This document shows positions 15,616-58,200 of a stretch of 64,000 bases of DNA, piece by piece. Position 1 is the first letter of the stretch, and every line of letters starts with the position of its first letter. Both the position numbers and the translations under genes were made by a program. The notes below the pieces were generated by a model. It was not told where the DNA came from, did no database searches, and worked only from the letters and a program-made list of their open reading frames with translations. This DNA is from Ostreococcus lucimarinus (taxonomy: Eukaryota), in assembly GCA_000092065.1 (NCBI GenBank), contig CP000600.1; one strand, given 5' to 3'.

Positions 15616-18600
15616 TTAAAAGGCGCGCTTGGGGCGCTTCCTCAAGATGCGAGCGACGGGAGGCCGTGGACTCGGTTCGTCGCCGTCGCTGTCGCCGTCG
15701 GTGTCGAAATCAAAGGTGTGCTTGAGGGGAGAAAAGTCGGCGCGATCGCGCTCGGCTTTGGCGCGCTTCTTGGCGTCAGACGTGGGGATCTTGGACGTGA
15801 GCGCGATGAGCGGACCGGGAACTGGATTCACCGCCAAAGTGAGCGGATCGTTTGCGGCCACGCTCGGCATGGCGTGGAGCTCGTTCGCGCACATCATCTT
15901 GCGCTTCTTCGTTCGCTCGCCAGCGTTCGTCGTCGTCGTCGTCGTCGTCGCGGTGAGGTCTGATTTGGACGAGGAATGCGGCGGTGGGTTTTCCACGGGC
16001 GATGCGTCGTGCGTCGTGGGAGAAGGTTCCGATGAAGTGCGCTCGGCGGTTTCTTCCGTTTGCACGGCGGTTTCAGGCTCGTCAAAATCGTACGTTTGCA
16101 CGGCAATTTCGCGCCGCGGAGACTCACCAAAGTCGTCCGTCTGCACGGCGATTTCGCGCCGCGGCGATGCCGATACCGTTGGCTGTTTCGCTGACGCAGT
16201 GTATTCCGTCTGTGTTTGGACATCCTTCATCGGGGTTGAGGACTTCGATTGCGGCGAAGTCGCCTTCTCCATCTGAGCGTTCCCCTTCGTCGACTTGATA
16301 ATCGGTGCCGGACTCTGCACCTCGATTTCGTCCGTATCGACGTCGGGGTCGGCGTCCGGCACCAAGGTACCTTGGATCGATTCCTCTCGGTCATCGATGA
16401 CTGTGGTTTGTTCTTCCTCGCCGACTGTGATTTGTTCTTCTTCCTCGCCGACTGTGGTTTGTTCTTCTTCCTCGCCGACTGTGATTTGTTCTTCTTCCTC
16501 GACGGGTTCGATTTGATCTTCGTCTTCCTCGACGGGTTCGATTTGATCTTCGTCTTCCTCGACGGGTTCGATTTGATCTTCGTCTTCCTCGACGGGGACG
16601 ATTTGTTGCTCCGTCACCTCGATTGACTCTTCTTCATTCGCCTCCATCTCCGGCGCCGCGGGCGCTTCTGCGGGCATGTGTATCTGTAGAGGGAATTCAT
16701 CTAAACCAACATTGATACCATCGTCCGCAGCTTTGATCGCATCGGTAATAGCCGGACTTAAGACGGGCGGTTTCGTCAACTGGAAAGGAAGCGCACCGAT
16801 TTCTGAGAGCGCAATCAGCTTCTTTGCCTTTTCCGCCCTGGAGAGCGGCTCGCGAGCCTCTGAGCCAAGGATGAGACTCGTCACCGTCATGTGTGAATGC
16901 GCGAGTTTCACGTCTGGCGAGATCACAGTGAACATCGAAGGTTTCGCAACGCGTGCTCTAAATTCCGGCATGACTTGTTTCTTCACGTAAGGACTCATAC
17001 ACGTCAAGCATGCTTGCATGGCGTCTTCGCTCGCGATGAGAATGTAGGGCGTATAAAATTTCTCAATTTCTTTCGTCGCCTTTTCGATGATGAGATCATT
17101 CATCGTGCACGCTGTATGGGATATAGCGTTAATCACGTCCGTCATCATCGCCCTGACACCCTCCGGTGGCGGCACTTCAGTGGTCTCGTCCAACGGATGG
17201 AAGGCGCACATCAAACCAGCGGTGACTGACTTGAGTTGTCGATTTATCTCGATTTGAATGTTCTTCGTACATTCGAGCCAAAGACGCGTGGTACTCTCCC
17301 CAGCAACTTTCGCTGAATTCATGTACGCATATCTATGCGCCGGGCTCAACTTGAATTTAGTTAGCGCTAAATTGAAGAGCGCTCGCATCATGGCGCGCTT
17401 CGGATCATCTTCGGGGCCTGCGAGACTCGCAATCTGATTTTTCACCAAAGCGCCAAACATCAATTCGCCAGTACTTTGATCAGAGACGAGAGAGTGACAC
17501 CAAGCAGCATTGACACTCTCACAGACTTGGAATAATAATCCTCGAGGCTTTTGCGGCGTGTTTTTTCCGTTAAAGTTGAAGTAGAAAGTTGCCTCCAAGA
17601 CCTTTCCAAAGTAATCCACCGCCTCGATGATAAATCCACGCACGTCTGCTGGCGTTCGAATGTCATGGATGCGTTCCTCAGGCCTTAAATTTTTCGTCAA
17701 GACCTCACGCACGACTGCCGCGCGACCGTGCTTGATGGCATGAATATCAAGCGGCTCCATGGCTACTTTCATCGAGACCGCGATGACGCGAGTGCAAAAC
17801 TGGTGCGCTAGTTCATACACTCTTCTCGCCGCATAAGCGCCACCTTCGCCTAATCTGAACTCGATATCATCGTAAAATCCACGAAGAGAATCATCAGAAC
17901 ACGTTGGAAGCGCACAAAGCGGTTCGGCGGCGACGCAGAAAGCCTTGAGTACGTCGTGGACTCGTCGCGTCACGCGGCGCATCGCCTTCAACTGTCTTGC
18001 CCGCTTGAGCTCCTCCAGAGTGGCGTTCAAAGAACCATGACCGGTGATACTCTGCACATCAAACTTTTCAGGGTCCAAAACTTTGGCCCAAGACAGACGA
18101 AACTCGAGGAACTTCCAAGCTACCGCAATTACGGCGTTGGCTGTCTGCTTGAGCTCGCGAACACTTCCGGTTTGATCCATCAACATCTTCAGCAACTCGG
18201 CGCGGCGGACCGTGGCTATCTCTACTGTGTTTTCGTTGATGACTCGATCGATCGCCCATTGAATCTCTTCGTCCACTGGCGGGAAATCTTTTGCAAGTTC
18301 TTCCACGCTGACATCTCTACCGAGTTTACGCTTTAACAATGCGCTCGCACGTTTCAAAGTTGTCGCTGTGCTTCCCCAAATACGATCACCTTGAACGGCA
18401 TTTATGAAACGTCTAGTTGCTGGTCGAATCGCCAGTTGCTGCAAAAATCCACTTTTATGAAGCGACCGCACAATATCGCCCGTGACTTCACGCGAGTCGC
18501 CAAGGCAAATAACGGCGGCAGCGTTGCGCAAAGCGGCGACGAGATGCCTGTCTCGAGCGGGATCGGAATCGCCCGCACCGGGCGCATCGATCAGAACTAA

Positions 18601-20313
18601 ACCACGCTTTTGCGGTGGAACTGGGATATCTATCCGGACTTCACGCAGTAACCCCCAACACGACGATGGAATGTGCGTTTGAGTGAACACGGTGTGCTTC
18701 GTCGCTCTCAAAGCGCGCTGAAACGTACGTTCGTCAGTATAATCTATTGGTTCGTCAGGTTTGCCGTTTTTGTTTCTGTCGGTTTTGTACTCGAACTCAA
18801 CGCGCTTGCCTAACCGTTCGATATACTCGGCTGGAATTGCCACGTCGCTCTCGTCCAAGTCAGCGAGCGTCGATATGTTCGGGTCAAGCCCGACCATGGC
18901 GCACGCCACCCTGAGCACCGACGGTAATCCGTAGCCATCGTCTGGAACCGCTTCCCCTTCCTTCGGCTTCGTCCTAAAATCTAAAAGCGTAGTTTCTTCC
19001 AAACCTCGAGCCTTGAGCTCCTTTTTCACGTACGATTCGGCGTAAAAGCCTAAGCCCTTGCGAGCCGATTCGATTGCCCGCGCTTGGCGCACCGCGTACT
19101 GGAGCGCGTGCACGTGTTGCTTGACGACATCCTCGCTAAAGTACACCAAACTCACTCTGAAGGCGTCGGATGTTCTCACAGAAGACGCCACGGACGTCGT
19201 GTCCATGACATCACCCTCTGGGAGCAAAAACGGCGGCGGTCTCGCATTTTTGAGTCTGGGATCGTTCTCCAAAAAATCCTTCAACGTCGTGGGCGGCGGC
19301 GGGAACTTCTTCTTTCGCACCGGAATCTCATACGCCGCGATCGCCGCGTCGTACTTCTGACGCTTCGCTTCCTCGGCCGCTTTCTTCGCCGCCTCCTTAT
19401 CGCGCGCCTCCTGATGCTCCTTGTACAAGACGTAACTCGGCTTGACTTTCTGCCCCTTCTTCTGCGCCTTCTTCGCCGCCTCCTTGAGCTTTTCCTTGCG
19501 AATCGCGTCCGCCTCCGAATCCTTGAACGCATCCCCCCGTATCTCTCTTCCTCGCATGTGTCTCGGCATGTACACCGCCGCGCTCGTGTCTCGATCCAAC
19601 GGCGGCGGCGGCGCGAACGCGCTCGCGTTCGCGTCCAACGCCGCCCCCCCCTCGTCCTCCCAATCGTCCTCCATCGCTCGCGCTTTATCCTCCTCCGCCT
19701 CCTCCGCGCGTTCATCGTGATCTCGCATCTTCGTCAGCGTCAGTTTCCCGTTCGCGCCGCCAGTTCCGACCCTTCCTCGCGCGTCGCCTCGACTCGCCAG
19801 CTCCCGCAGCAGCCCGTTCAGCACGTGACTCTTCCCCACCCCCGACCGCCCCAGCGCCACGACTCGCAGCGGCGCCGACGTCGCGCGTTCGTATTCCTCC
19901 ATCGCCCGCGTCGTCTCCTCCACCAGCCGTCGTCGCGCGCTCTCCGGCACGACGTACGTCGACCCCGGCGCGTCGAGCGTCGCCGCGCGTCCGTGCGACA
20001 GCATCAGCTCCCGCGTCGACCGCAGCGCGTCGTGCAGCGCGCCCGTCTGCGCGTCGAAACAAAAAGCGCGGCGTTTACGGTCAGTCGCGAAGTTCGTCGT
20101 TCCGCGCGCGTCGTCGTTCCGCGCGCGTCGCGACGATTTCATTTCATTTTCGCGCGCTTCGATTCGCGTTCGACGCACCCGCACGACGCGCAGCGCGGCG
20201 TCGACGGCGTCGGCGTCCGTCAGGTCCCCGCACGCGCTCTCCGCGTGCCGCGCGAGCGAGCGCGCGCGGCGCTCGGCGCGCGCGGCGTCGGAATCATCGG
20301 ATTCGTCGCGCAT
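15616..20313 (-). CDS. Large (~1560 aa) dynamin/mitofusin-like P-loop GTPase with an in-frame intron candidate (20047..20178) and C-terminal acidic tandem repeats.
   Basis: G1 'ALGRSGVGKSHVLNGLL' (GxxxxGKS). G3 'LVLIDAPGAGD' (DxPG) lies ~400 aa downstream, so a large lysine/proline-rich insertion sits between them. Long alpha-helical stalk-like region. C-terminal repeats 'VEEDEDQIEP'x3, 'GEEEEQ(T/I)TV'x4, 'SPRREIAVQT'x2. ORF sequence upstream of 20313 is antisense to TTC1 and arginine-rich, so it is rejected. Confidence 0.6.
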   Translation of the reverse strand: MRDESDDSDAARAERRARSLARHAESACGDLTDADAVDAALRVVRVRRTRIEARENEMKSSRRARNDDARGTTNFATDRKRRAFCFDAQTGALHDALRSTRELMLSHGRAATLDAPGSTYVVPESARRRLVEETTRAMEEYERATSAPLRVVALGRSGVGKSHVLNGLLRELASRGDARGRVGTGGANGKLTLTKMRDHDERAEEAEEDKARAMEDDWEDEGGAALDANASAFAPPPPLDRDTSAAVYMPRHMRGREIRGDAFKDSEADAIRKEKLKEAAKKAQKKGQKVKPSYVLYKEHQEARDKEAAKKAAEEAKRQKYDAAIAAYEIPVRKKKFPPPPTTLKDFLENDPRLKNARPPPFLLPEGDVMDTTSVASSVRTSDAFRVSLVYFSEDVVKQHVHALQYAVRQARAIESARKGLGFYAESYVKKELKARGLEETTLLDFRTKPKEGEAVPDDGYGLPSVLRVACAMVGLDPNISTLADLDESDVAIPAEYIERLGKRVEFEYKTDRNKNGKPDEPIDYTDERTFQRALRATKHTVFTQTHIPSSCWGLLREVRIDIPVPPQKRGLVLIDAPGAGDSDPARDRHLVAALRNAAAVICLGDSREVTGDIVRSLHKSGFLQQLAIRPATRRFINAVQGDRIWGSTATTLKRASALLKRKLGRDVSVEELAKDFPPVDEEIQWAIDRVINENTVEIATVRRAELLKMLMDQTGSVRELKQTANAVIAVAWKFLEFRLSWAKVLDPEKFDVQSITGHGSLNATLEELKRARQLKAMRRVTRRVHDVLKAFCVAAEPLCALPTCSDDSLRGFYDDIEFRLGEGGAYAARRVYELAHQFCTRVIAVSMKVAMEPLDIHAIKHGRAAVVREVLTKNLRPEERIHDIRTPADVRGFIIEAVDYFGKVLEATFYFNFNGKNTPQKPRGLLFQVCESVNAAWCHSLVSDQSTGELMFGALVKNQIASLAGPEDDPKRAMMRALFNLALTKFKLSPAHRYAYMNSAKVAGESTTRLWLECTKNIQIEINRQLKSVTAGLMCAFHPLDETTEVPPPEGVRAMMTDVINAISHTACTMNDLIIEKATKEIEKFYTPYILIASEDAMQACLTCMSPYVKKQVMPEFRARVAKPSMFTVISPDVKLAHSHMTVTSLILGSEAREPLSRAEKAKKLIALSEIGALPFQLTKPPVLSPAITDAIKAADDGINVGLDEFPLQIHMPAEAPAAPEMEANEEESIEVTEQQIVPVEEDEDQIEPVEEDEDQIEPVEEDEDQIEPVEEEEQITVGEEEEQTTVGEEEEQITVGEEEQTTVIDDREESIQGTLVPDADPDVDTDEIEVQSPAPIIKSTKGNAQMEKATSPQSKSSTPMKDVQTQTEYTASAKQPTVSASPRREIAVQTDDFGESPRREIAVQTYDFDEPETAVQTEETAERTSSEPSPTTHDASPVENPPPHSSSKSDLTATTTTTTTNAGERTKKRKMMCANELHAMPSVAANDPLTLAVNPVPGPLIALTSKIPTSDAKKRAKAERDRADFSPLKHTFDFDTDGDSDGDEPSPRPPVARILRKRPKRAF
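16055..16180 (-). repeat. Coding tandem repeat: ~42-nt unit x2-3 (SPRREIAVQTxDF).
   Basis: 'gtttgcacggcaatttcgcgccgcgg' repeated at 16094 and 16138, with a partial copy at ~16059. Confidence 0.7.
16399..16590 (-). repeat. Coding tandem repeats: 27-nt unit x4 (EEEEQxTVG) followed by 30-nt unit x3 (VEEDEDQIEP).
   Basis: Near-perfect direct repeats 'ttcttcctcgccgactgtgatttgttc' and 'ctcgacgggttcgatttgatcttcgtcttc' on the + strand, inside the GTPase CDS. Confidence 0.8.
20047..20178 (-). other. Putative 132-nt in-frame, stop-free intron in the GTPase gene.
   Basis: Minus-strand GTGCGT donor directly after '...AALRVVR'. AT-richer island 'gaaaatgaaatgaaatcg'. 'cgactgacc' branch point 33 nt before the acceptor 'ctttttgtttcgacgcgcag'. 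Confidence 0.5.
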
Positions 20314-20334
20314 CGCCGCACAGTGCCGCGCGCG

Positions 20335-21060
20335 ATGGTCGCGCTCGTCGACGCGGACGACGCGCGCGGCGCGACGGACGCGCGCGACGACGACGGCGAC
20401 GCGCGCGACGCGCGCGGCGACGCGCGCGACGCGGCGGCGCGGCGGCGCGATGGGAACGCGGCGTTCGCGCGGGGCGCGTACGCCGAGGCGTCGCGCGCGT
20501 ACACGGACGCGCTGACGCGCGCGCGCGGCGATGGGCGCGGCGACGCGCGCGAGGACGCTTTGGACGCGGGCGAGGACGCGGCGGGCGCGGCGCGCGGCGA
20601 CGGGGACGCGGCGACGTGTCTGGCGAATCGCGCGGCGTGTTGGTTGAAGCTGGAGCGATACGAGGACGCGGCGAGGGATTGCGACGAGGCGATCGCGATC
20701 GATGGGACGTACGCGAAGGCGTACGCGAGACGGGCGCGCGCGAGGGAGGCGCTCGGGGACGAGGAGGGGGCGCTGGAGGATTGGGAGAGGACGCGCGCGT
20801 TGGCGCCGAGGGACGCGACGGCGAGGGACGAGACGAGGCGACTGAAGCCGGTGGTGGAGCGGAAACGGGAAGAGATGAAGAGAGAGATGTTGGATAAGAT
20901 GAAGGATTTGGGGAACTCTTTGCTCGGGAACTTTGGGCTGAGTTTGGATAACTTCAAGGCGGAGAAGGACGCGACGACGGGGAGTTACTCGATTCACTTC
21001 GTCGACGAAAAGAAACGCTCGACGACTGGCGACGAGGACGACGAGGACGACGAGAACTGA
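20335..21060 (+). CDS. TTC1: Tetratricopeptide repeat protein 1 (TTC1) homologue.
   Basis: Three TPRs ('GNAAFARGAYAEASRAYTDAL', 'ANRAACWLKLERYEDAARDCDEAIAIDGTYAKAYARRARAREALGDEEGALEDW'). C-terminal 'DLGNSLLGNFGLSLDNFKAEKDATTGSYSIHFV' matches TTC1 '[32 protein letters not shown]'. Acidic N-terminal region. Confidence 0.75.
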   Translation: MVALVDADDARGATDARDDDGDARDARGDARDAAARRRDGNAAFARGAYAEASRAYTDALTRARGDGRGDAREDALDAGEDAAGAARGDGDAATCLANRAACWLKLERYEDAARDCDEAIAIDGTYAKAYARRARAREALGDEEGALEDWERTRALAPRDATARDETRRLKPVVERKREEMKREMLDKMKDLGNSLLGNFGLSLDNFKAEKDATTGSYSIHFVDEKKRSTTGDEDDEDDEN

Positions 21061-21136
21061 GCTCGCGCGCGCGGTGCGCTCGCTATAGCTATTAAAATTG
21101 TCACACGCGCGCGCTCGAGCGTCGCGAGAGTCTAGT

Positions 21137-21850
21137 CTAATCGCCGTCGCGTTCGAGTCCGCCGCGCAACGCGAGCTGTCGACACCGCTTTTCAAACGCT
21201 TGAATCTGCGACCTCGCGACGTCGTCGAAGACCACGCTCACCGCCGCGGCGTGCATGGGATCTTTAACTTCAAAATCAATCTCGAAATCCACGATGACGC
21301 CCTCGGCGGGTAATCCCGTGACCGGGTCTTCGTCCTCGTCGTCGTCGAGCGGCGAAAATTTCCACGTCGTCGTCATCGACCGAAACAACCCGCTCGACAC
21401 GCTCGTCGCCGTCACGCGCTCCGGTCGCGCGCACGTCACCGCGCTCGTGTACTTCTCGTTGAATAATTTAAACCCAATCTCCAAATCCGCCTCAAAGTAT
21501 TCCTCCCCTCGCGCCAGCGCCTCGCGTTCGCGTTCGCGTCCCCATCGCTCTCGCGGCGTCCGCCTCGCCCCCGCGCAGAACGGCACGAACGCCGCGTAAC
21601 TGTCCACGTCCGCCACCGCGTCGCACAGCGCGTCTCGCGCGATCCCCTTGACGATTCGTCGCGCCGAGAACCGTCGCCGCGCGCCCTCGTCGCCGTCGCC
21701 GTCGCCGTTTCGCCCGTCGCCGTCGTCACCGCGCGTCGCCACCTCCCGCGCGCGTCCGAGCGTCGCGCCGGGCGTCGCGCGGGTCGGCCCCACGGCGCGC
21801 GTCGCGCGCGTCGCCGCCTCCCGCGCGCGCCTCGCGAGCGCGCGCGACAT
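21137..21850 (-). CDS. COQ10: Coenzyme Q-binding protein COQ10 (START/SRPBCC fold) with a mitochondrial presequence.
   Basis: 'LEIGFKLFNEKYTSAVTCARPERVTATSVSSGLFRSMTTTWKFSP' matches COQ10 '[45 protein letters not shown]'. 'FEIDFEVKDPMHAAAVSVVFDDVARSQIQAFEKRC' matches '[35 protein letters not shown]'. Presequence 'MSRALARRAREAATRA'. Confidence 0.8.
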   Translation of the reverse strand: MSRALARRAREAATRATRAVGPTRATPGATLGRAREVATRGDDGDGRNGDGDGDEGARRRFSARRIVKGIARDALCDAVADVDSYAAFVPFCAGARRTPRERWGREREREALARGEEYFEADLEIGFKLFNEKYTSAVTCARPERVTATSVSSGLFRSMTTTWKFSPLDDDEDEDPVTGLPAEGVIVDFEIDFEVKDPMHAAAVSVVFDDVARSQIQAFEKRCRQLALRGGLERDGD

Positions 21851-22035: not shown

Positions 22036-23180
22036 ATGTTCACGCTCTCCACCACCCTCGCGCACGCCGCCGTCAAGGCGAACGTCAAGGCGACGCGTAA
22101 ATCGCAATCGCGCCGAGGCGCCGTCAAGGTCGCCGCGCAGGCGCCCGACGCGTCGAGCCGTCGCGAAGCCATGAGTCTCATCGCGGTGCGTCCGAACGCG
22201 ACGACGCGATCGAGCGCGCGATGCGCGCGCCCGCGCGCGACGCGCGACGCGCGGGACGACGCGGGACGACGCGGGACGACGCGCGGAATTATTGTCGAGC
22301 GAACCGGCGCGCGAGGGCGCGGAGAGACGCGCGCGCGACGCGTCGAGGACGCGACGCGCGCGACATCATCCAACGAGATACTGACGATCGCGCGGCGTGC
22401 GGTTTCATCGAACGCAGGGCGCGACGACGCTCGCGATGTCCAAGCCGGCGTTCGCGGCGTACGGTGACTCGGCGAACGTTTTCGGCGGCGTGTCGAACCC
22501 GACCGGTGCGTGCGCGCGCGAGGCGCGAGGCGCGCGCGAGGCGCGCGCGAGGCGCGAGCGATCGTATCGACCCGAGATACGATTCGCGCGTGATCCGGGA
22601 CCGATGGGTCGTGATGTCGTGTGGGTAAACAGTGAGACTGACGAGACGCGCTACTTTCGCGAATGCAGGTTTCGTCCCGTACGCCGGCGACGGCTTCGCG
22701 TTCTTGTTGCCGAGCAAGTACAACCCGAGCAAGGAACGCCCGTTCCCGAACACGGAGTGCTATTTCGAGGATAACTTTGACCAAGTGACGAACATTTCCG
22801 TAATCGCCGAAAAAGCCGAAAAGGGGAGCATCGACGCGTACGGCAAGCCGGAGCAATTCTTGGAAAAGCTTGGGTACTTATTGGGCGTGCAATCGTACGC
22901 CGGGCAAACCCGCTCCGAAGGGGGGTTCGCGGCGAACAAGGTTTCCACCGCCGCCGTGCTCGACGTGTACACGCGCGAAAACAAGGGCAAGACGTACTAC
23001 CAATACGAAATTCTCACGCGCACCGCGGACGGCGACGAAGGCGGACGCCACCAGTTGATCACCGCCACCGTGAGTGATGGGAACTTGTACATCATGAAGC
23101 TTCAATCGGGTGACAAGCGTTGGTTCAAGGGTCAAGAGCGCGACCTTCGCACCGCGATGAACTCGTTCACCGTGGCGTAA
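22036..23180 (+). CDS. psbP: Photosystem II oxygen-evolving enhancer protein 2 (PsbP, 23 kDa) precursor; three exons, join(22036..22185, 22418..22505, 22669..23180).
   Basis: Exon 1 carries a transit peptide plus the Tat motif 'SRREAMSLIA'. Exon 2 'GATTLAMSKPAFA|AYGDSANVFGGVSNPTG' holds the h-region, an AFA cleavage site and the mature N-terminus AYG...NVFG. Exon 3 'FVPYAGDGFAFLLPSKYNPSKE...LTRTADGDEGGRHQLITATVSDGNLYIMKLQSGDKRWFKG...NSFTVA' matches PsbP along its full length. Both introns have GTGCGT donors, CTGAC branch points and CAG acceptors. Phases check out: 0 after exon 1 and 1 after exon 2. The spliced product is 249 aa. Confidence 0.85.
22186..22417 (+). other. psbP intron 1 (232 nt).
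   Basis: GTGCGT donor. Internal (GACGCGGGAC)x3 microrepeat. 'tactgac' branch point 32 nt before the cgcag acceptor. Confidence 0.75.
22506..22668 (+). other. psbP intron 2 (163 nt, phase 1).
   Basis: GTGCGT donor. (GCGCGAGGCGC) repeats. 'gactgac' branch point 26 nt before the tgcag acceptor. Confidence 0.75.
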
Positions 23181-33952: not shown

Positions 33953-34189
33953 TTTGTATTTTTTGTATCTCTGTATCTTTGCCTCGAGCGCGCGTTTCGA
34001 TTCGTTTCGCGCGCGTCGGCGTCGGCGCGCGGCAGAGCGCGACTCGCGGCGGCGGCGATGCGCGGTCGGTCGGTTCGACGCGCGCTCGCGCTCGCGCTCG
34101 CGTGCGGCTTGGGTGCGTGACGTAGGGCGCTCGTCGCGACGCGTCGCGGCGGCTCGACGACGGCGCGCGCGCGCGCGGAGGGAACGATC

Positions 34190-35644
34190 GTGGGGAACGC
34201 GCGCGTCGAGCGAATGCGCGTCGACGCGCGCGAGAGCGGCGAAACGCGACGGCGCGATATCGGACTGACGGCGCGCGAACGCTACCTGTCGAACGCAGCG
34301 ATGGCGCGCGACGCGGAGGGGGCGCGACGCGCGAGCGTGAACGCCTCGGGCGTGTTCAACACCAACGGCTTGCGGTGTCCCGAAGACGTCGAGTGCGAGC
34401 GGTGCGCGGCGCCGCTGAACGCGGCGCCGTTCCGCGCGCCGGTGAACCTGACGGGAGTGCGAGTGATCGGGTGTCGATACCGCGCGGACGTGTGCGACGC
34501 GCTGCGCGAGGAGTCGAAGGCGTGCAAGAGACACGCGCGGTCGCTGTGCGGCGAACAGGACACGCGAGCGCAGGCGAAGACGAAATGTAAACGCGAAATG
34601 AATCGAGCGTGGAAGACGCGGTGCAAGGAAGAACGGACGATGATGGTGTCGCGCGCGGATGGGGCGCTGAAACGGTTCTTGGAAGTGCTGGAAAAGTTGA
34701 AAAGGGCGCGAGCGAAGCGCGCGGCGGGAGGCGCCGGGGACGACTTGACGATGTTAGAGATGGAGCTTTCGCGCTTGAAGACGTCGATCGGGCACGCGTT
34801 CGAGGAGCTGAGAAGTAATCACGGAGGCGTCGCGGTGGGATTGATGTCGGATCGAATGGAAGCGTTCGTGCGCGGGCCGACGCTGTTGGATTCGACGAGC
34901 GATATGTTGGACGTCGTCAACGCCATGAACGCCGTCTTGGGCGAGCTTCAAGGTTTGAGCACCGAAGCGAAAAGCTTGTGCTCGTACGACGCGAACATGG
35001 ACACGTCGGATGGTAAAATTTTGTGCCAAGACATGGAAGAAAAGATGAAGCTTTCGGAGAAGCGCGTCAACCGCTGCGCCGCGCGCCTGAGCGATTATTT
35101 AGCGTCGACGGCGAAAATCGACGCCCTCATCGTAGAGAAGAAGCGTCGGTTCGCGCTTTTGGATTCGCTCGACAAGTTCACCGATTCAATCTCTGGCGCT
35201 TGGTCCGCGGTGCAGTACGAAGGCGACGACGACTTTGTCGAAGAGCCGTCGACGCGCTTCAATCTCACCGAACACGTCACCACGGGCATCGTGCACACGC
35301 TCATGAACCACTACACCACTGTCAGCGCCCGCCACGCGCTCGCCACCGCCGAAATCAAAGAATCCGCGCTTTGCGCGCACATCATTCCAAGATTTCAGCT
35401 CTCTCTCCTCGGCACCGGCTTCAAGCGCGGCGACCTCGCGTGTCCGCCGCCCCACGGCACCTTCATCGCCGGTCGCGAGCTCCCGGACTGGTCCGCCTAC
35501 TTTTTATTCCTCCTCGGCATCGCCGTCGGCGCCGGCGCCACGATCGCCACCAATCGCGCCAACGAAGCCGTGGATTTCGTGCGCACGAATTCCTCCGTCG
35601 TCGTCGCCGTCTTGGTCGTCGTCTTGGCCGGTCGCTTCTTTTAG
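34190..35644 (+). CDS. Hypothetical protein with a Cys-rich N-terminal region, a long helical middle and a C-terminal TM anchor. Alternative start at 34298.
   Basis: 'CPEDVECERCAAP...GCRYRADVCDALREESKACKRHARSLCGEQ...CKREMNRAWKTRC'. C-terminal 'WSAYFLFLLGIAVGAGATIA...VVVAVLVVVLAGRFF'. No family recognised. Confidence 0.4.
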   Translation: MGNARVERMRVDARESGETRRRDIGLTARERYLSNAAMARDAEGARRASVNASGVFNTNGLRCPEDVECERCAAPLNAAPFRAPVNLTGVRVIGCRYRADVCDALREESKACKRHARSLCGEQDTRAQAKTKCKREMNRAWKTRCKEERTMMVSRADGALKRFLEVLEKLKRARAKRAAGGAGDDLTMLEMELSRLKTSIGHAFEELRSNHGGVAVGLMSDRMEAFVRGPTLLDSTSDMLDVVNAMNAVLGELQGLSTEAKSLCSYDANMDTSDGKILCQDMEEKMKLSEKRVNRCAARLSDYLASTAKIDALIVEKKRRFALLDSLDKFTDSISGAWSAVQYEGDDDFVEEPSTRFNLTEHVTTGIVHTLMNHYTTVSARHALATAEIKESALCAHIIPRFQLSLLGTGFKRGDLACPPPHGTFIAGRELPDWSAYFLFLLGIAVGAGATIATNRANEAVDFVRTNSSVVVAVLVVVLAGRFF

Positions 35645-55212: not shown

Positions 55213-58200
55213 ATGGCGACGCGCGACGCCCTCGCGGCGTTCTGCGCCGCGTCGGCGCGCGACGACGACGCGACATCGCTCGCGGACGACGTCGCGCTCG
55301 CCGAGATCGCGCGCGCGATCGCGGACGGCGCGCGCGCGGTTTTAGACGTCGTCGTCGACCTGGAAGGATTTCTCACAGCGACCGAGCCAAAGCCGCGGGC
55401 GCGGGCGACGGAAATCCTCGCGCACGTCGCCGAAGAGTGCGCGATGACGCTGGATGATCGCGCGGTGCGCACGCTGAGCGCGTTCTTCGCGTCGAGGTTG
55501 AGCGATTTCGCGTCGACGGCGAGCGCGGCGCGCGGCGCCGAGGCGTTGGTGAAGCGAGCGAACGCGGAGGCGATCGAAGCGACGTCGAGGGCACTTTTCG
55601 CGGAGTGCGACGTGCAGGGGTTGAGACAAAGCGATAGGGAAGCGTGCGTGCGGTTGGCGATCGAAATGCTGCGGAGTGCGCACGCTGGGGCGTGCGCGCG
55701 CGGGGCGGGGGACGGGGAGCCGAACGAGGCGTTGGCGAGAATAATCGGCGCGTTCGATGGGGAGAAGGATCCTAGGTGCGTGTTGGGATTGTGTGAGGTG
55801 TGGACATTGTTGCCAGGGGCGTTTGAGCGGTTCGGGGAGGGTGGAAAGGCGGTGTACGAGGAGAATGCGGAGGAATTGTACGACGTCGCGGCGAGTTACT
55901 TTCCAGTGAGTTTCAAGCCGCCGAGAGGGGATTCGATTAAGATTTCTCGTCGCCAACTCGCGGAGGCGGTCGAACGCGCGATGACGGCGTCACCAACATT
56001 CGCACCGTGGGCCGTCGCGCACGCGTTGGAGAGTTTGAACCCTGAACTAGGTCCGGGGAAGATGGCGGACGCCGCGCGCGCGGTTCGCGCGATGGGCGAA
56101 CGTTTCGGCGCGAGCGTCATGGAAGAATACATGGGTATCGTTTGGCAAGCCATGCGCGCCGCATTGGCGCATCCCAACGCGACGAAGATGGAAGAAGACG
56201 ACGACGTGCAGGCGACGACGCCGATGGCGGTGATGACGACGATGTTTGCCAGCGAATTCACTCGCGGCACGCTCGCGCGCGCGGCGTTGACGGATCAATG
56301 CGTGCGCGACGCCGAAGTGACTTTGCGTCGCATGGCGAACGACAGCTCGTCGGATGACGTCGACGGCGCGTGCGCGATGGAGACCTCAGACGAGGGGTGC
56401 TGTGGCGGTGGTTGCGGCGGTGGGAGTAAGTCGTCCGGCGAAGAAGCGGCGAGGGGAAAACTCGTCGTTGCGACGGCGAGTCGCGTGCTCGGTGCGGTTG
56501 CCGCGGCGACCCCCACACTCGCGCATGATGTCATACACGGCACTTTAAAGTCACTTCTCGACGCCGCGAAGATTCCACGCGAAATAGATGGACTTCATTC
56601 GTCCAAAGCGGCGTACTTGGCTCTCATTCTTGCCACGCCCGCGCTCGGCGGCGCGTTGGATTGCTGCGAACGGAACGCCGAATCAAGTGTGCACATGAGC
56701 GTCTTGGACGATGAAAGTGAACGGTTGGTGGGGCTGTTTGCCGACGCAGCGCTGGGAAAGATCGAATCCCCGAGCTTTGACGAAGGCATCGTTTTAGGTT
56801 TAGCAGGATTGCACATGTTGTGCAAGTTTCCATACAGATTCGGTCTGGCGAGCGCTGAGTCGCGAGTCGCCGTGGCGAGCAAGCTATTCGATGCGATGAT
56901 GGCGCAACACGTAAACGAGTCCGAGGCCGATATCGAAGTGCGCATTGAGCGTTCGATCGATGCGCTCGTCGCCGCAGCGAGCGGTGCGGACGCAAAACTC
57001 GTTGACGCGATGTCGACGGGCGCCGTCGCTCTCCTTGCAGACAAAGTGACAGTTACGAATTTGCAAACCGTCGAAGCGACGCGAGCGATTCGTGCCCTCT
57101 GCGCCCTCGCGGCAGTAAATCAGATGATTCGAAACGACGTCGCGCGATTGTTTTGCGGCGTTGTGCGTGATGCTATCGAGATTGGTTCGCCGAATGCCGA
57201 GGATCTGGTGTCCGCGATGTGCCGCGACGACGACGGTGTACTGACGCGGTTTGTTTCATCCGACGAAGCACAGCGAGCGTGCGCCGATCTCACCACATTT
57301 TGTCTCGCGCGTGATCCTGCCACAACTGCAGAGTCCACCGTGCGCGTCGTCGCGAGCGCGGTGGCGAATTGTGACGACGCGACGCAAGCGCGATTCGCCG
57401 CCGAAGCCGTCGCGCTCTCGCGCGAAAAGCCGCTGATGGCTTGCGCGGTGATTTGTGGACTACGACCGCAAGCGGCGTTCGAAGCGACACACATGGTGGC
57501 CGCTCTCGACGAATTAACGCGCTCGCGCGGCGACCGAGGATTCTCGATGTTCGTCGCCGCCGCCGTCGGTTCGGCGACGCACAAATTCCCGAGCGTGGAC
57601 TTCGCGCCACCTATGGAAGACTTGACGGACGAGCGCACGACTTTCGTTCTCGGTGCGTGCTTGCGCGCGCGAGCGATGCGTCGAGACGATTCGTCGCCAT
57701 CTGATGCGCTGGTTTCGTGTCTCGTTCGCGCTCTCGACGACAGTTCGTCGCCTGAAGCGTCGAGAGGCGCGGCGATGGCGTTGAGCATGGCTGTGGGATT
57801 CAGCGCTGCGCATCGCGACATCGGGCTAGGTTTGAAGTCTTCGACTCACGCGAGCGAAAAGTTCCTCGCGTGTCAACGTTTCTTCACGAAAGTTGCGCCG
57901 ACTTTGATCAAGGGCGCGTACGAAGCCGTGGGCGCGAAGCGCTTGTCGAGATCTTACGCAGTCGTCAAGCTCGCCAGCGGCGTCGCCCCATCCGTGGCAC
58001 TCAGTTCGCAGTTCAACCTGTTCCCGCTGTTACCAGACGTGTTACACGCACTCACCGTCGGTACGCTCGCCGGTGACGACGACGCCGTGCGCGCGGCGCT
58101 CCTCCTCGTCGGCGCGCGACTCGCCGAGCCCGCACTGTACGATGCCGGCAGCGAAGGCGCGACGGAGCAGAACGCCGTCGCTCTCATCGACGCCCTGTGC

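Follow-up and report, generated by a model that had tools for sequence, protein, structure and literature searches.

A canonical 132-nt intron, in frame and without stop codons, probably lies hidden in the open reading frame of a P-loop gene of Ostreococcus lucimarinus

The DNA analysed here, a stretch of 64,000 nucleotides from contig CP000600.1 of the green alga Ostreococcus lucimarinus (assembly GCA_000092065.1), is referred to below as the window. On its minus strand, a continuous open reading frame (ORF) extends over 15616..21195 and contains a gene whose read-through product comprises 1565 codons. A first-pass annotation, made from the letters alone, had proposed that an intron is hidden near the 5' end of this gene. 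The segment in question, which runs from 20178 to 20047 on the minus strand, is 132 nt long (44 codons), lies in phase 0 and stays in frame without a stop codon, as the annotation had claimed. Its sequence, 5' to 3', is GTGCGTCGAACGCGAATCGAAGCGCGCGAAAATGAAATGAAATCGTCGCGACGCGCGCGGAACGACGACGCGCGCGGAACGACGAACTTCGCGACTGACCGTAAACGCCGCGCTTTTTGTTTCGACGCGCAG; its in-frame translation is the 44-residue peptide VRRTRIEARENEMKSSRRARNDDARGTTNFATDRKRRAFCFDAQ, which includes the stretches VRRTRIEARENEMK... and VRRTRIEARENEMKSSR.... We consider it, with a probability of about 0.93, to be a canonical U2-type GT-AG spliceosomal intron, the sole intron detected in a P-loop gene of this member of the Mamiellales. 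The features of the locus that are needed for the argument are the following.

20179..20313, minus strand: exon 1, 135 nt, 45 codons, MRDESDDSDAARAERRARSLARHAESACGDLTDADAVDAALRVVR; GC content at third codon positions (GC3) of 0.93; motif AESACGDL
20047..20178, minus strand: probable intron, 132 nt, GT-AG, phase 0, indicated by orthologous introns, divergence, flat GC and single-nucleotide polymorphisms
20173..20178, minus strand: putative 5' splice site GTGCGT (extended GTGCGTc, 20178-20172), directly after ...AALRVVR
20179..20184, minus strand: tandem alternative donor GTGCGG, in frame, 6 nt upstream of GTGCGT
20080..20086, minus strand: putative branch-point motif GACTGAC (GACTGACc, 20086-20079), with the branch A at 20081
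20047..20066, minus strand: pyrimidine-rich tract and putative 3' splice site ctttttgtttcgacgcgCAG, with CAG at 20049-20047
15616..20046, minus strand: exon 2, to the stop codon, beginning TGALHDALRSTRELMLSHG; Walker A motif GRSGVGKS

The splicing signals described in the annotation were all found. The donor GTGCGT immediately follows AALRVVR at 20178-20173, the GACTGAC motif at 20086-20080 lies close to the acceptor, and the pyrimidine tract with its CAG occupies 20066-20047. The distance from the branch A to the intron 3' end is 34 nt, while the introns of the same grammar in the window exhibit 25-37 nt. The interior of the segment is also richer in AT than the surrounding coding sequence, with a GC content of 0.61, while this value reaches 0.79 in exon 1 and 0.74 over the following 300 nt. 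According to the proposed mechanism, the pre-mRNA would be recognised at GTGCGT as the 5' splice site, at the A of GACTGAC as the branch point and at CAG as the 3' splice site. Removal of the segment would join ...AALRVVR to TGALHDAL..., thereby restoring the N-terminus that is common to all orthologues.

The most significant evidence comes from related loci. A protein search returned 15 homologue clusters, all from marine metagenomes or Ostreococcus, and the DNA of ten related loci was compared, which gives eight lineages in all when the window species is included. The gene order is common to all these loci, with a head-to-head TPR gene upstream and an enoyl-CoA hydratase gene downstream. A phase-0 intron is found at the same codon boundary in all eight lineages, with lengths of 111-159 nt in the other seven. 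Each lineage exhibits the same architecture: a short exon 1, which ends 12-14 residues past an AESAxGDL motif, a GT donor, a CTGAC-type branch motif, an acceptor (CAG, with TAG once) and a conserved exon 2 that opens with a conserved helix ending in ...HG. The donor is located 14 residues past GDL in six of the seven other lineages and 12 residues past it in O. tauri. The introns, and the consequence of reading through them, are as follows.

Window and L002, this species: 132 nt; in frame, without a stop
L014 1324-1458, sister species: 135 nt; in-frame stop (a TGA is met on retention)
L013, sister species: 136 nt; frameshift, plus in-frame stop
L003 3866-4024, related lineage: 159 nt; in-frame stop
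L006, related lineage: 130 nt; frameshift, plus in-frame stops
L008, related lineage: 158 nt; frameshift
L010 2109-2219, O. tauri: 111 nt; two in-frame stops
L011 1365-1511, related lineage: 147 nt; in-frame stops
L012 260-391, related lineage: 132 nt; in-frame stop

In O. tauri, the GenBank model of the orthologous gene, OUS46061.1 (GCA_002158475.1, KZ155785.1), is named 'P-loop containing nucleoside triphosphate hydrolase'. It has a range of 4569 nt and a coding sequence of 4458 nt, the difference being exactly 111 nt, and its protein reads ...RKSLDA/GRGMVETS across the junction at L010 2109-2219. This shows that the orthologous intron is already annotated in that species. The first intron of OUS46061.1 resembles the window segment in lying in the orthologous gene with the same neighbours, in its phase 0, in the succession GTGCGT...GACTGAC...CAG and in its position after the AESAxGDL exon; it differs in its length of 111 nt, its two in-frame stops and a junction 12 rather than 14 residues past GDL. 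The P-loop protein of the window is about 54% identical to its O. tauri counterpart, and the MnmA-like protein encoded next to it, which is 100% identical to metagenome entries, is 70% identical to that of O. tauri, the nearest named relative.

In an alignment of the unspliced window protein with the spliced N-termini of the eight lineages, the 44 residues appeared as an insertion facing only gaps at the junction, and the spliced N-terminus of the window aligned end to end with the seven orthologous spliced N-termini. The 44-residue peptide has no counterpart in any orthologue of this alignment. The annotation had named conservation of these residues in orthologues as a finding that would speak against an intron; their absence, together with the phase-0 introns at the same site in all orthologous loci and the O. 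tauri annotation, instead supports it. As the same phase-0 position is occupied in eight lineages, the intron is probably old.

The way in which the segment evolves also differs from that of its flanks. The window protein is 92% identical to that of the sister species. At the nucleotide level, in comparison with L014, exon 1 is 93% identical including gaps and 97% identical over aligned bases, with one in-frame 6-nt indel (a deletion in the sister species), and exon 2 is 91-94% identical, with 92% at third codon positions. The segment itself is only 58% identical including gaps, with 37 gap columns. The sister-species intron has kept only the donor, GACTGAC, CAG and a short internal block; the tract upstream of CAG is not conserved. 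Haplotypes of the sister species carry 1-nt indels inside the intron, in contrast to the 6-nt in-frame indel in exon 1. In the window species, six sites segregate within the 132 nt (five genomic haplotypes), whereas none segregates in the flanking exon sequence (four clean haplotypes). Among the listed cluster members, 5 of the 44 codons of the segment vary; exon 1 has one variable codon among its 45, and the 21 codons that open exon 2 have none. The GC content at the three codon positions is flat in the segment (0.61/0.57/0.64), whereas both exons are strongly periodic (exon 1: 0.84/0.58/0.93; exon 2: 0.66/0.49/0.80). The segment is thus without codon periodicity and carries no coding signal. 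Judged from these comparisons, the interior of the intron evolves almost without constraint.

These data bear directly on the possibility that there is no intron and that the 132 nt are always translated as a species-specific insertion of 44 residues, which we regard as very improbable. The ORF is continuous, and prokaryote-style gene callers applied to metagenome contigs predict a product of 1565 residues; nevertheless, the callers behind these read-through models do not model splicing. Such an insertion is also at odds with the orthologous intron at the same site in eight lineages, annotated in O. tauri, with the 58% identity of the segment against 93-97% in the exons, and with the flat GC3, the full consensus splice signals and the conserved branch point. 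The true product is almost certainly the spliced protein of 1521 residues, not that of 1565 residues.

It is extremely improbable that the segment is a recently inserted, transposon-derived introner element of the Micromonas kind. Its ends are complementary over 10 bp, in the manner of terminal inverted repeats, and such elements occur in the related genus Micromonas (PMC4540971). The segment resembles the Micromonas elements in stemming from the same algal order and in its similar length, but it is unrepeated in the window, ancient and conserved in position, whereas they are lineage-specific. Within the 64-kb window, each half of the segment occurs only once, even when ≤3 mismatches are allowed, and no repeat family covers it; on the basis of these half-segment searches and of the whole-window repeat scan, which yielded no copies, the repeat or introner idea was rejected. 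In addition, the presence of an intron at this site in all eight lineages implies an ancient origin without presence/absence polymorphism, and the complementarity of the ends is absent in the sister species.

The gene starts at the ATG at 20313 (MRDESDD...); no other in-frame ATG precedes the conserved AESACGDL, and the part of the ORF upstream of 20313 is an antisense read-through of the divergent TPR-protein gene on the plus strand. In the eight lineages, the residues E, S, A, G, D and L of the AESAxGDL motif never change, while different synonymous codons are used within it (Ser AGC/AGT/TCC, Leu CTG/CTC/TTG/TTA, Gly GGG/GGT, Asp GAC/GAT). Since the motif is kept through synonymous changes, including the exchange of Ser AGC and TCC, exon 1 is genuinely coding.

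Alternatively, the gene could start downstream, at the MLSHG methionine (ATG 20004-20002, minus strand), in which case the segment and what we call exon 1 would be 5' untranslated region (UTR) or shared promoter DNA. A gene caller indeed began the sister-species protein (P0002) at MLSHG, the upstream ATG is merely 21 nt from the ATG of the TPR gene, and the nucleotide conservation of exon 1 exceeds that of synonymous sites, which could reflect regulatory constraint. However, the exon-1 motif is conserved as amino acids with synonymous codon changes across eight lineages, the 6-nt indel of exon 1 in the sister species is in frame, and the O. tauri model takes in exon 1. Moreover, the stretch from the acceptor to MLSHG is conserved and can be aligned with orthologues in which the Met itself is lacking (LLTSHG in L003, IENHG in L008), so that translation must start upstream. 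A start at MLSHG is therefore highly improbable.

With regard to known introns of this species, the expressed sequence tag (EST)-confirmed introns of O. lucimarinus outside chromosome 2 have the atypical 5' consensus GTGCGTG, and 87% of them exhibit the branch point ACTGAC, with the extended form GACTGACG (Irimia & Roy 2008, PMC2483917). The segment is similar to these non-chromosome-2 Ostreococcus introns in its GT-AG ends, in its donor (GTGCGTc, matching GTGCGTG), in its branch motif (GACTGACc, matching GACTGACG), in its length, which falls within the usual range of about 100-230 nt, and in its position near the 5' end of the gene. It differs from the typical ones in that its length is a multiple of three (3n) and in being in phase 0, stop-free and hidden in an ORF; nothing structural differs. 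What places it in the U2-type class is the combination of its boundaries and donor, its branch motif, the restoration of the frame, and the intron at the same site in other lineages with a faster-evolving interior.

The annotation had also noted that the segment follows the grammar of other introns in the window. With a strict grammar (GTGCGT, ACTGAC, 5-45 nt and CAG, all within 350 nt, on both strands of the window), seven matches were found, against 0.92 ± 1.0 in dinucleotide shuffles (maximum 3 in 100), an enrichment of about 7-fold. The class defined in this way is real, yet roughly one in seven matches could be due to chance. The six further strict-grammar matches are located as follows.

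22186-22417 and 22506-22668, plus strand: both in the neighbouring PsbP-like gene
2525-2618, 34113-34298 and 57163-57273, plus strand: strict-grammar matches
38653-38460, minus strand: strict-grammar match

Two of these six (186 nt and 111 nt) are likewise 3n in length. A looser grammar gives 19 matches in the window, some of them within conserved coding sequence. The grammar is therefore suggestive and not decisive by itself, and it is the comparative evidence that settles the intron call.

Several observations weigh against this assignment. Exact look-ups of four candidate products (GTGCGT-spliced, GTGCGG-spliced, unspliced and MLSHG start) in the protein collection returned none of them. 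A query with the spliced N-terminus brought up nothing derived from a transcript; its matches were genomic read-through ORFs or ORFs that begin in the intron. As every haplotype seen has the segment at a 3n length and without a stop, ORF logic does not exclude translation of an unspliced mRNA. In the sister-species contig L001 (5813-5828), an extra G is present at the end of exon 1, which reads GTCGTGCAGG followed by GTGCGC and would place the donor out of frame. Finally, the first 10 nt of the intron, GUGCGUCGAA (20169-20178), can pair with nucleotides 121-130, UUCGACGCGC (20049-20058), on the minus strand. This 10-bp pairing would draw both splice sites together and could in principle hinder their recognition.

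L013 and L014 exhibit GTCGTCAGG followed by GTGCGC at the boundary of exon 1 and intron, without the extra G; because these are two independent contigs, the extra G of L001 probably stems from misassembly or from a rare allele. The upstream GTGCGG (20184) had been considered as a donor because L001 seemed to need a site 6 nt upstream, and it was dropped, since L013 and L014 have an in-frame donor at the homologous site. GTGCGG at 20179..20184 is thus probably not the main donor, as the orthologue alignment and the consensus T at position +6 favour 20178. Another contig, L018 (1500-1563), carries five A-to-C changes in exon 1, including ATG to CTG. The oddities of both L001 and L018 resemble rare alleles or errors of assembly or sequencing. 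The end pairing is treated as a curiosity because it is absent in the sister species. The minimum free energy of the intron is -61 kcal/mol, compared with -52.8 ± 3.2 for shuffles (z = -2.5).

We infer that the intron is spliced in the window species, and that it is so constitutively. The 3n and stop-free state is what makes it unusual: the combination occurs in the window species only, the other lineages exhibiting a frameshift and/or one to three in-frame stops. Because the interior is 3n without an in-frame stop in the window species and close strains, a six-frame ORF scan reads through it. This state is not surprising, since stop codons are rare in a genome of about 62-70% GC. When the interior was subjected to dinucleotide shuffling, 46% of the shuffles had no in-frame stop, which gives about 0.15 when multiplied by 1/3 for the length. 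The in-frame, stop-free state thus looks like a chance feature of one species. A 3n length is found in six of the eight lineages (132, 135, 159, 111, 147 and 132 nt versus 130 and 158 nt), with a binomial p of about 0.02 against 1/3; this excess among the orthologous introns is probably a small-sample effect.

The annotation had also considered a retained isoform with 44 additional residues. A real intron would be compatible with its regulated or frequent retention, in which the unspliced mRNA would escape nonsense-mediated decay (NMD) and give a functional isoform with a 44-residue, Arg/Lys-rich insertion. In the window, as in every close-strain haplotype seen, the segment keeps the frame and contains no stop, and the inserted peptide has the basic clusters RRAR and RKRR. 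On the other hand, the 44 residues are not conserved, the sister species meets a TGA and segregates 1-nt indels there, the segment lacks codon periodicity, nonsynonymous polymorphisms affect 5 of its 44 codons within the species, all seven other lineages run into a premature stop or a frameshift, and the chance of a 3n, stop-free state is about 0.15. Functional retention is thus very unlikely. In Paramecium and Yarrowia, stop-less 3n introns are reported to be counter-selected, since their retention escapes NMD (PMC2911113, citing the original Paramecium study). The window segment is similar to such introns in that its length is a multiple of three, it has no stop, and a retained copy would be translated without NMD, whereas the orthologous introns all belong to the 'safe', NMD-visible classes. 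In contrast to the genome-wide depletion in Paramecium and Yarrowia, it is a single instance with no evidence of selection for or against it. It is very unlikely that an ancient intron has drifted or been selected into the stop-less 3n state so that NMD-invisible retention yields a second P-loop isoform. If this were true, the second isoform would have a basic insertion of 44 residues (RRAR...RKRR, localisation-signal-like) between the AESACGDL motif and the first helix.

Exitrons resemble coding sequence in their composition, and the protein sequence that they encode is conserved. The segment shares with them that it is a splice-competent, 3n, stop-free stretch in what metagenome callers take for a continuous coding exon; it differs in lacking a coding-like composition and in encoding a peptide present in no orthologue. 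An exitron identity was rejected on account of the flat GC by codon position, the unconserved peptide, and the stop and indels of the sister species.

The region upstream of exon 1 contains the following feature.

20335..21060, plus strand: divergent TPR-protein gene, with its ATG 21 nt from the exon 1 ATG; head-to-head in all related loci

As the start codons are only 21 nt apart (20313-20335), the promoter or 5' UTR of each gene must overlap the other gene. The nucleotide identity of exon 1 (97%, against 92% at third positions of exon 2) hints at a dual constraint. The corresponding spacers between the divergent genes are at L014 1171-1195, L003 3695-3767 and L006 3652-3778. A CACTGTG/CACAGTG motif is present in the spacer of the window (20319-20325), of the sister species and of L003 and L006; the spacers of L008, L010, L011 and L012 lack it. 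The O. tauri spacer (L010 1830-1940) exhibits a long, near-perfect palindrome, cgataggcgtacatcgaaaggcgtcgatacctttcgaaaggg...ccctttcgaaaggtatcg, which the window lacks. In the interval 19900-20400, the sole match to Rfam was a sub-threshold one to mir-288 on the opposite strand (22 bits versus a gathering threshold of 60, E = 0.098), and an RNA hosted by the intron was rejected, as there was no above-threshold match in this interval. A scan for bacterial promoters and terminators found nothing, which is not relevant to a eukaryote.

With regard to the remainder of the gene, no second intron was detected in this P-loop NTPase-like gene of about 1521 codons, and Pfam gave a weak AAA_16 match only, with no confident domain. 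The C-terminal third (15616-16700, minus strand) comprises acidic tandem repeats, VEEDEDQIEP three times and then GEEEEQ(I/T)TV. The number of C-terminal repeats differs among strains, with cluster members of 1565, 1566 and 1576 residues. In more distant orthologues, the equivalent region matches a GATA zinc finger, a match that the window species lacks.

The intron is an ordinary, ancient and canonical one, with no sign of a new mechanism. Its consequence for gene models is nevertheless direct: ORF-based callers applied to picoeukaryote contigs report the read-through product of 1565 residues, and all listed full-length members of a cluster of 191 members read through. The 1565-residue models in metagenome protein sets should be 1521 residues long. 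The locus thus offers a worked example of an in-frame, stop-free intron hidden in an ORF of a GC-rich genome and resolved by comparison with relatives.

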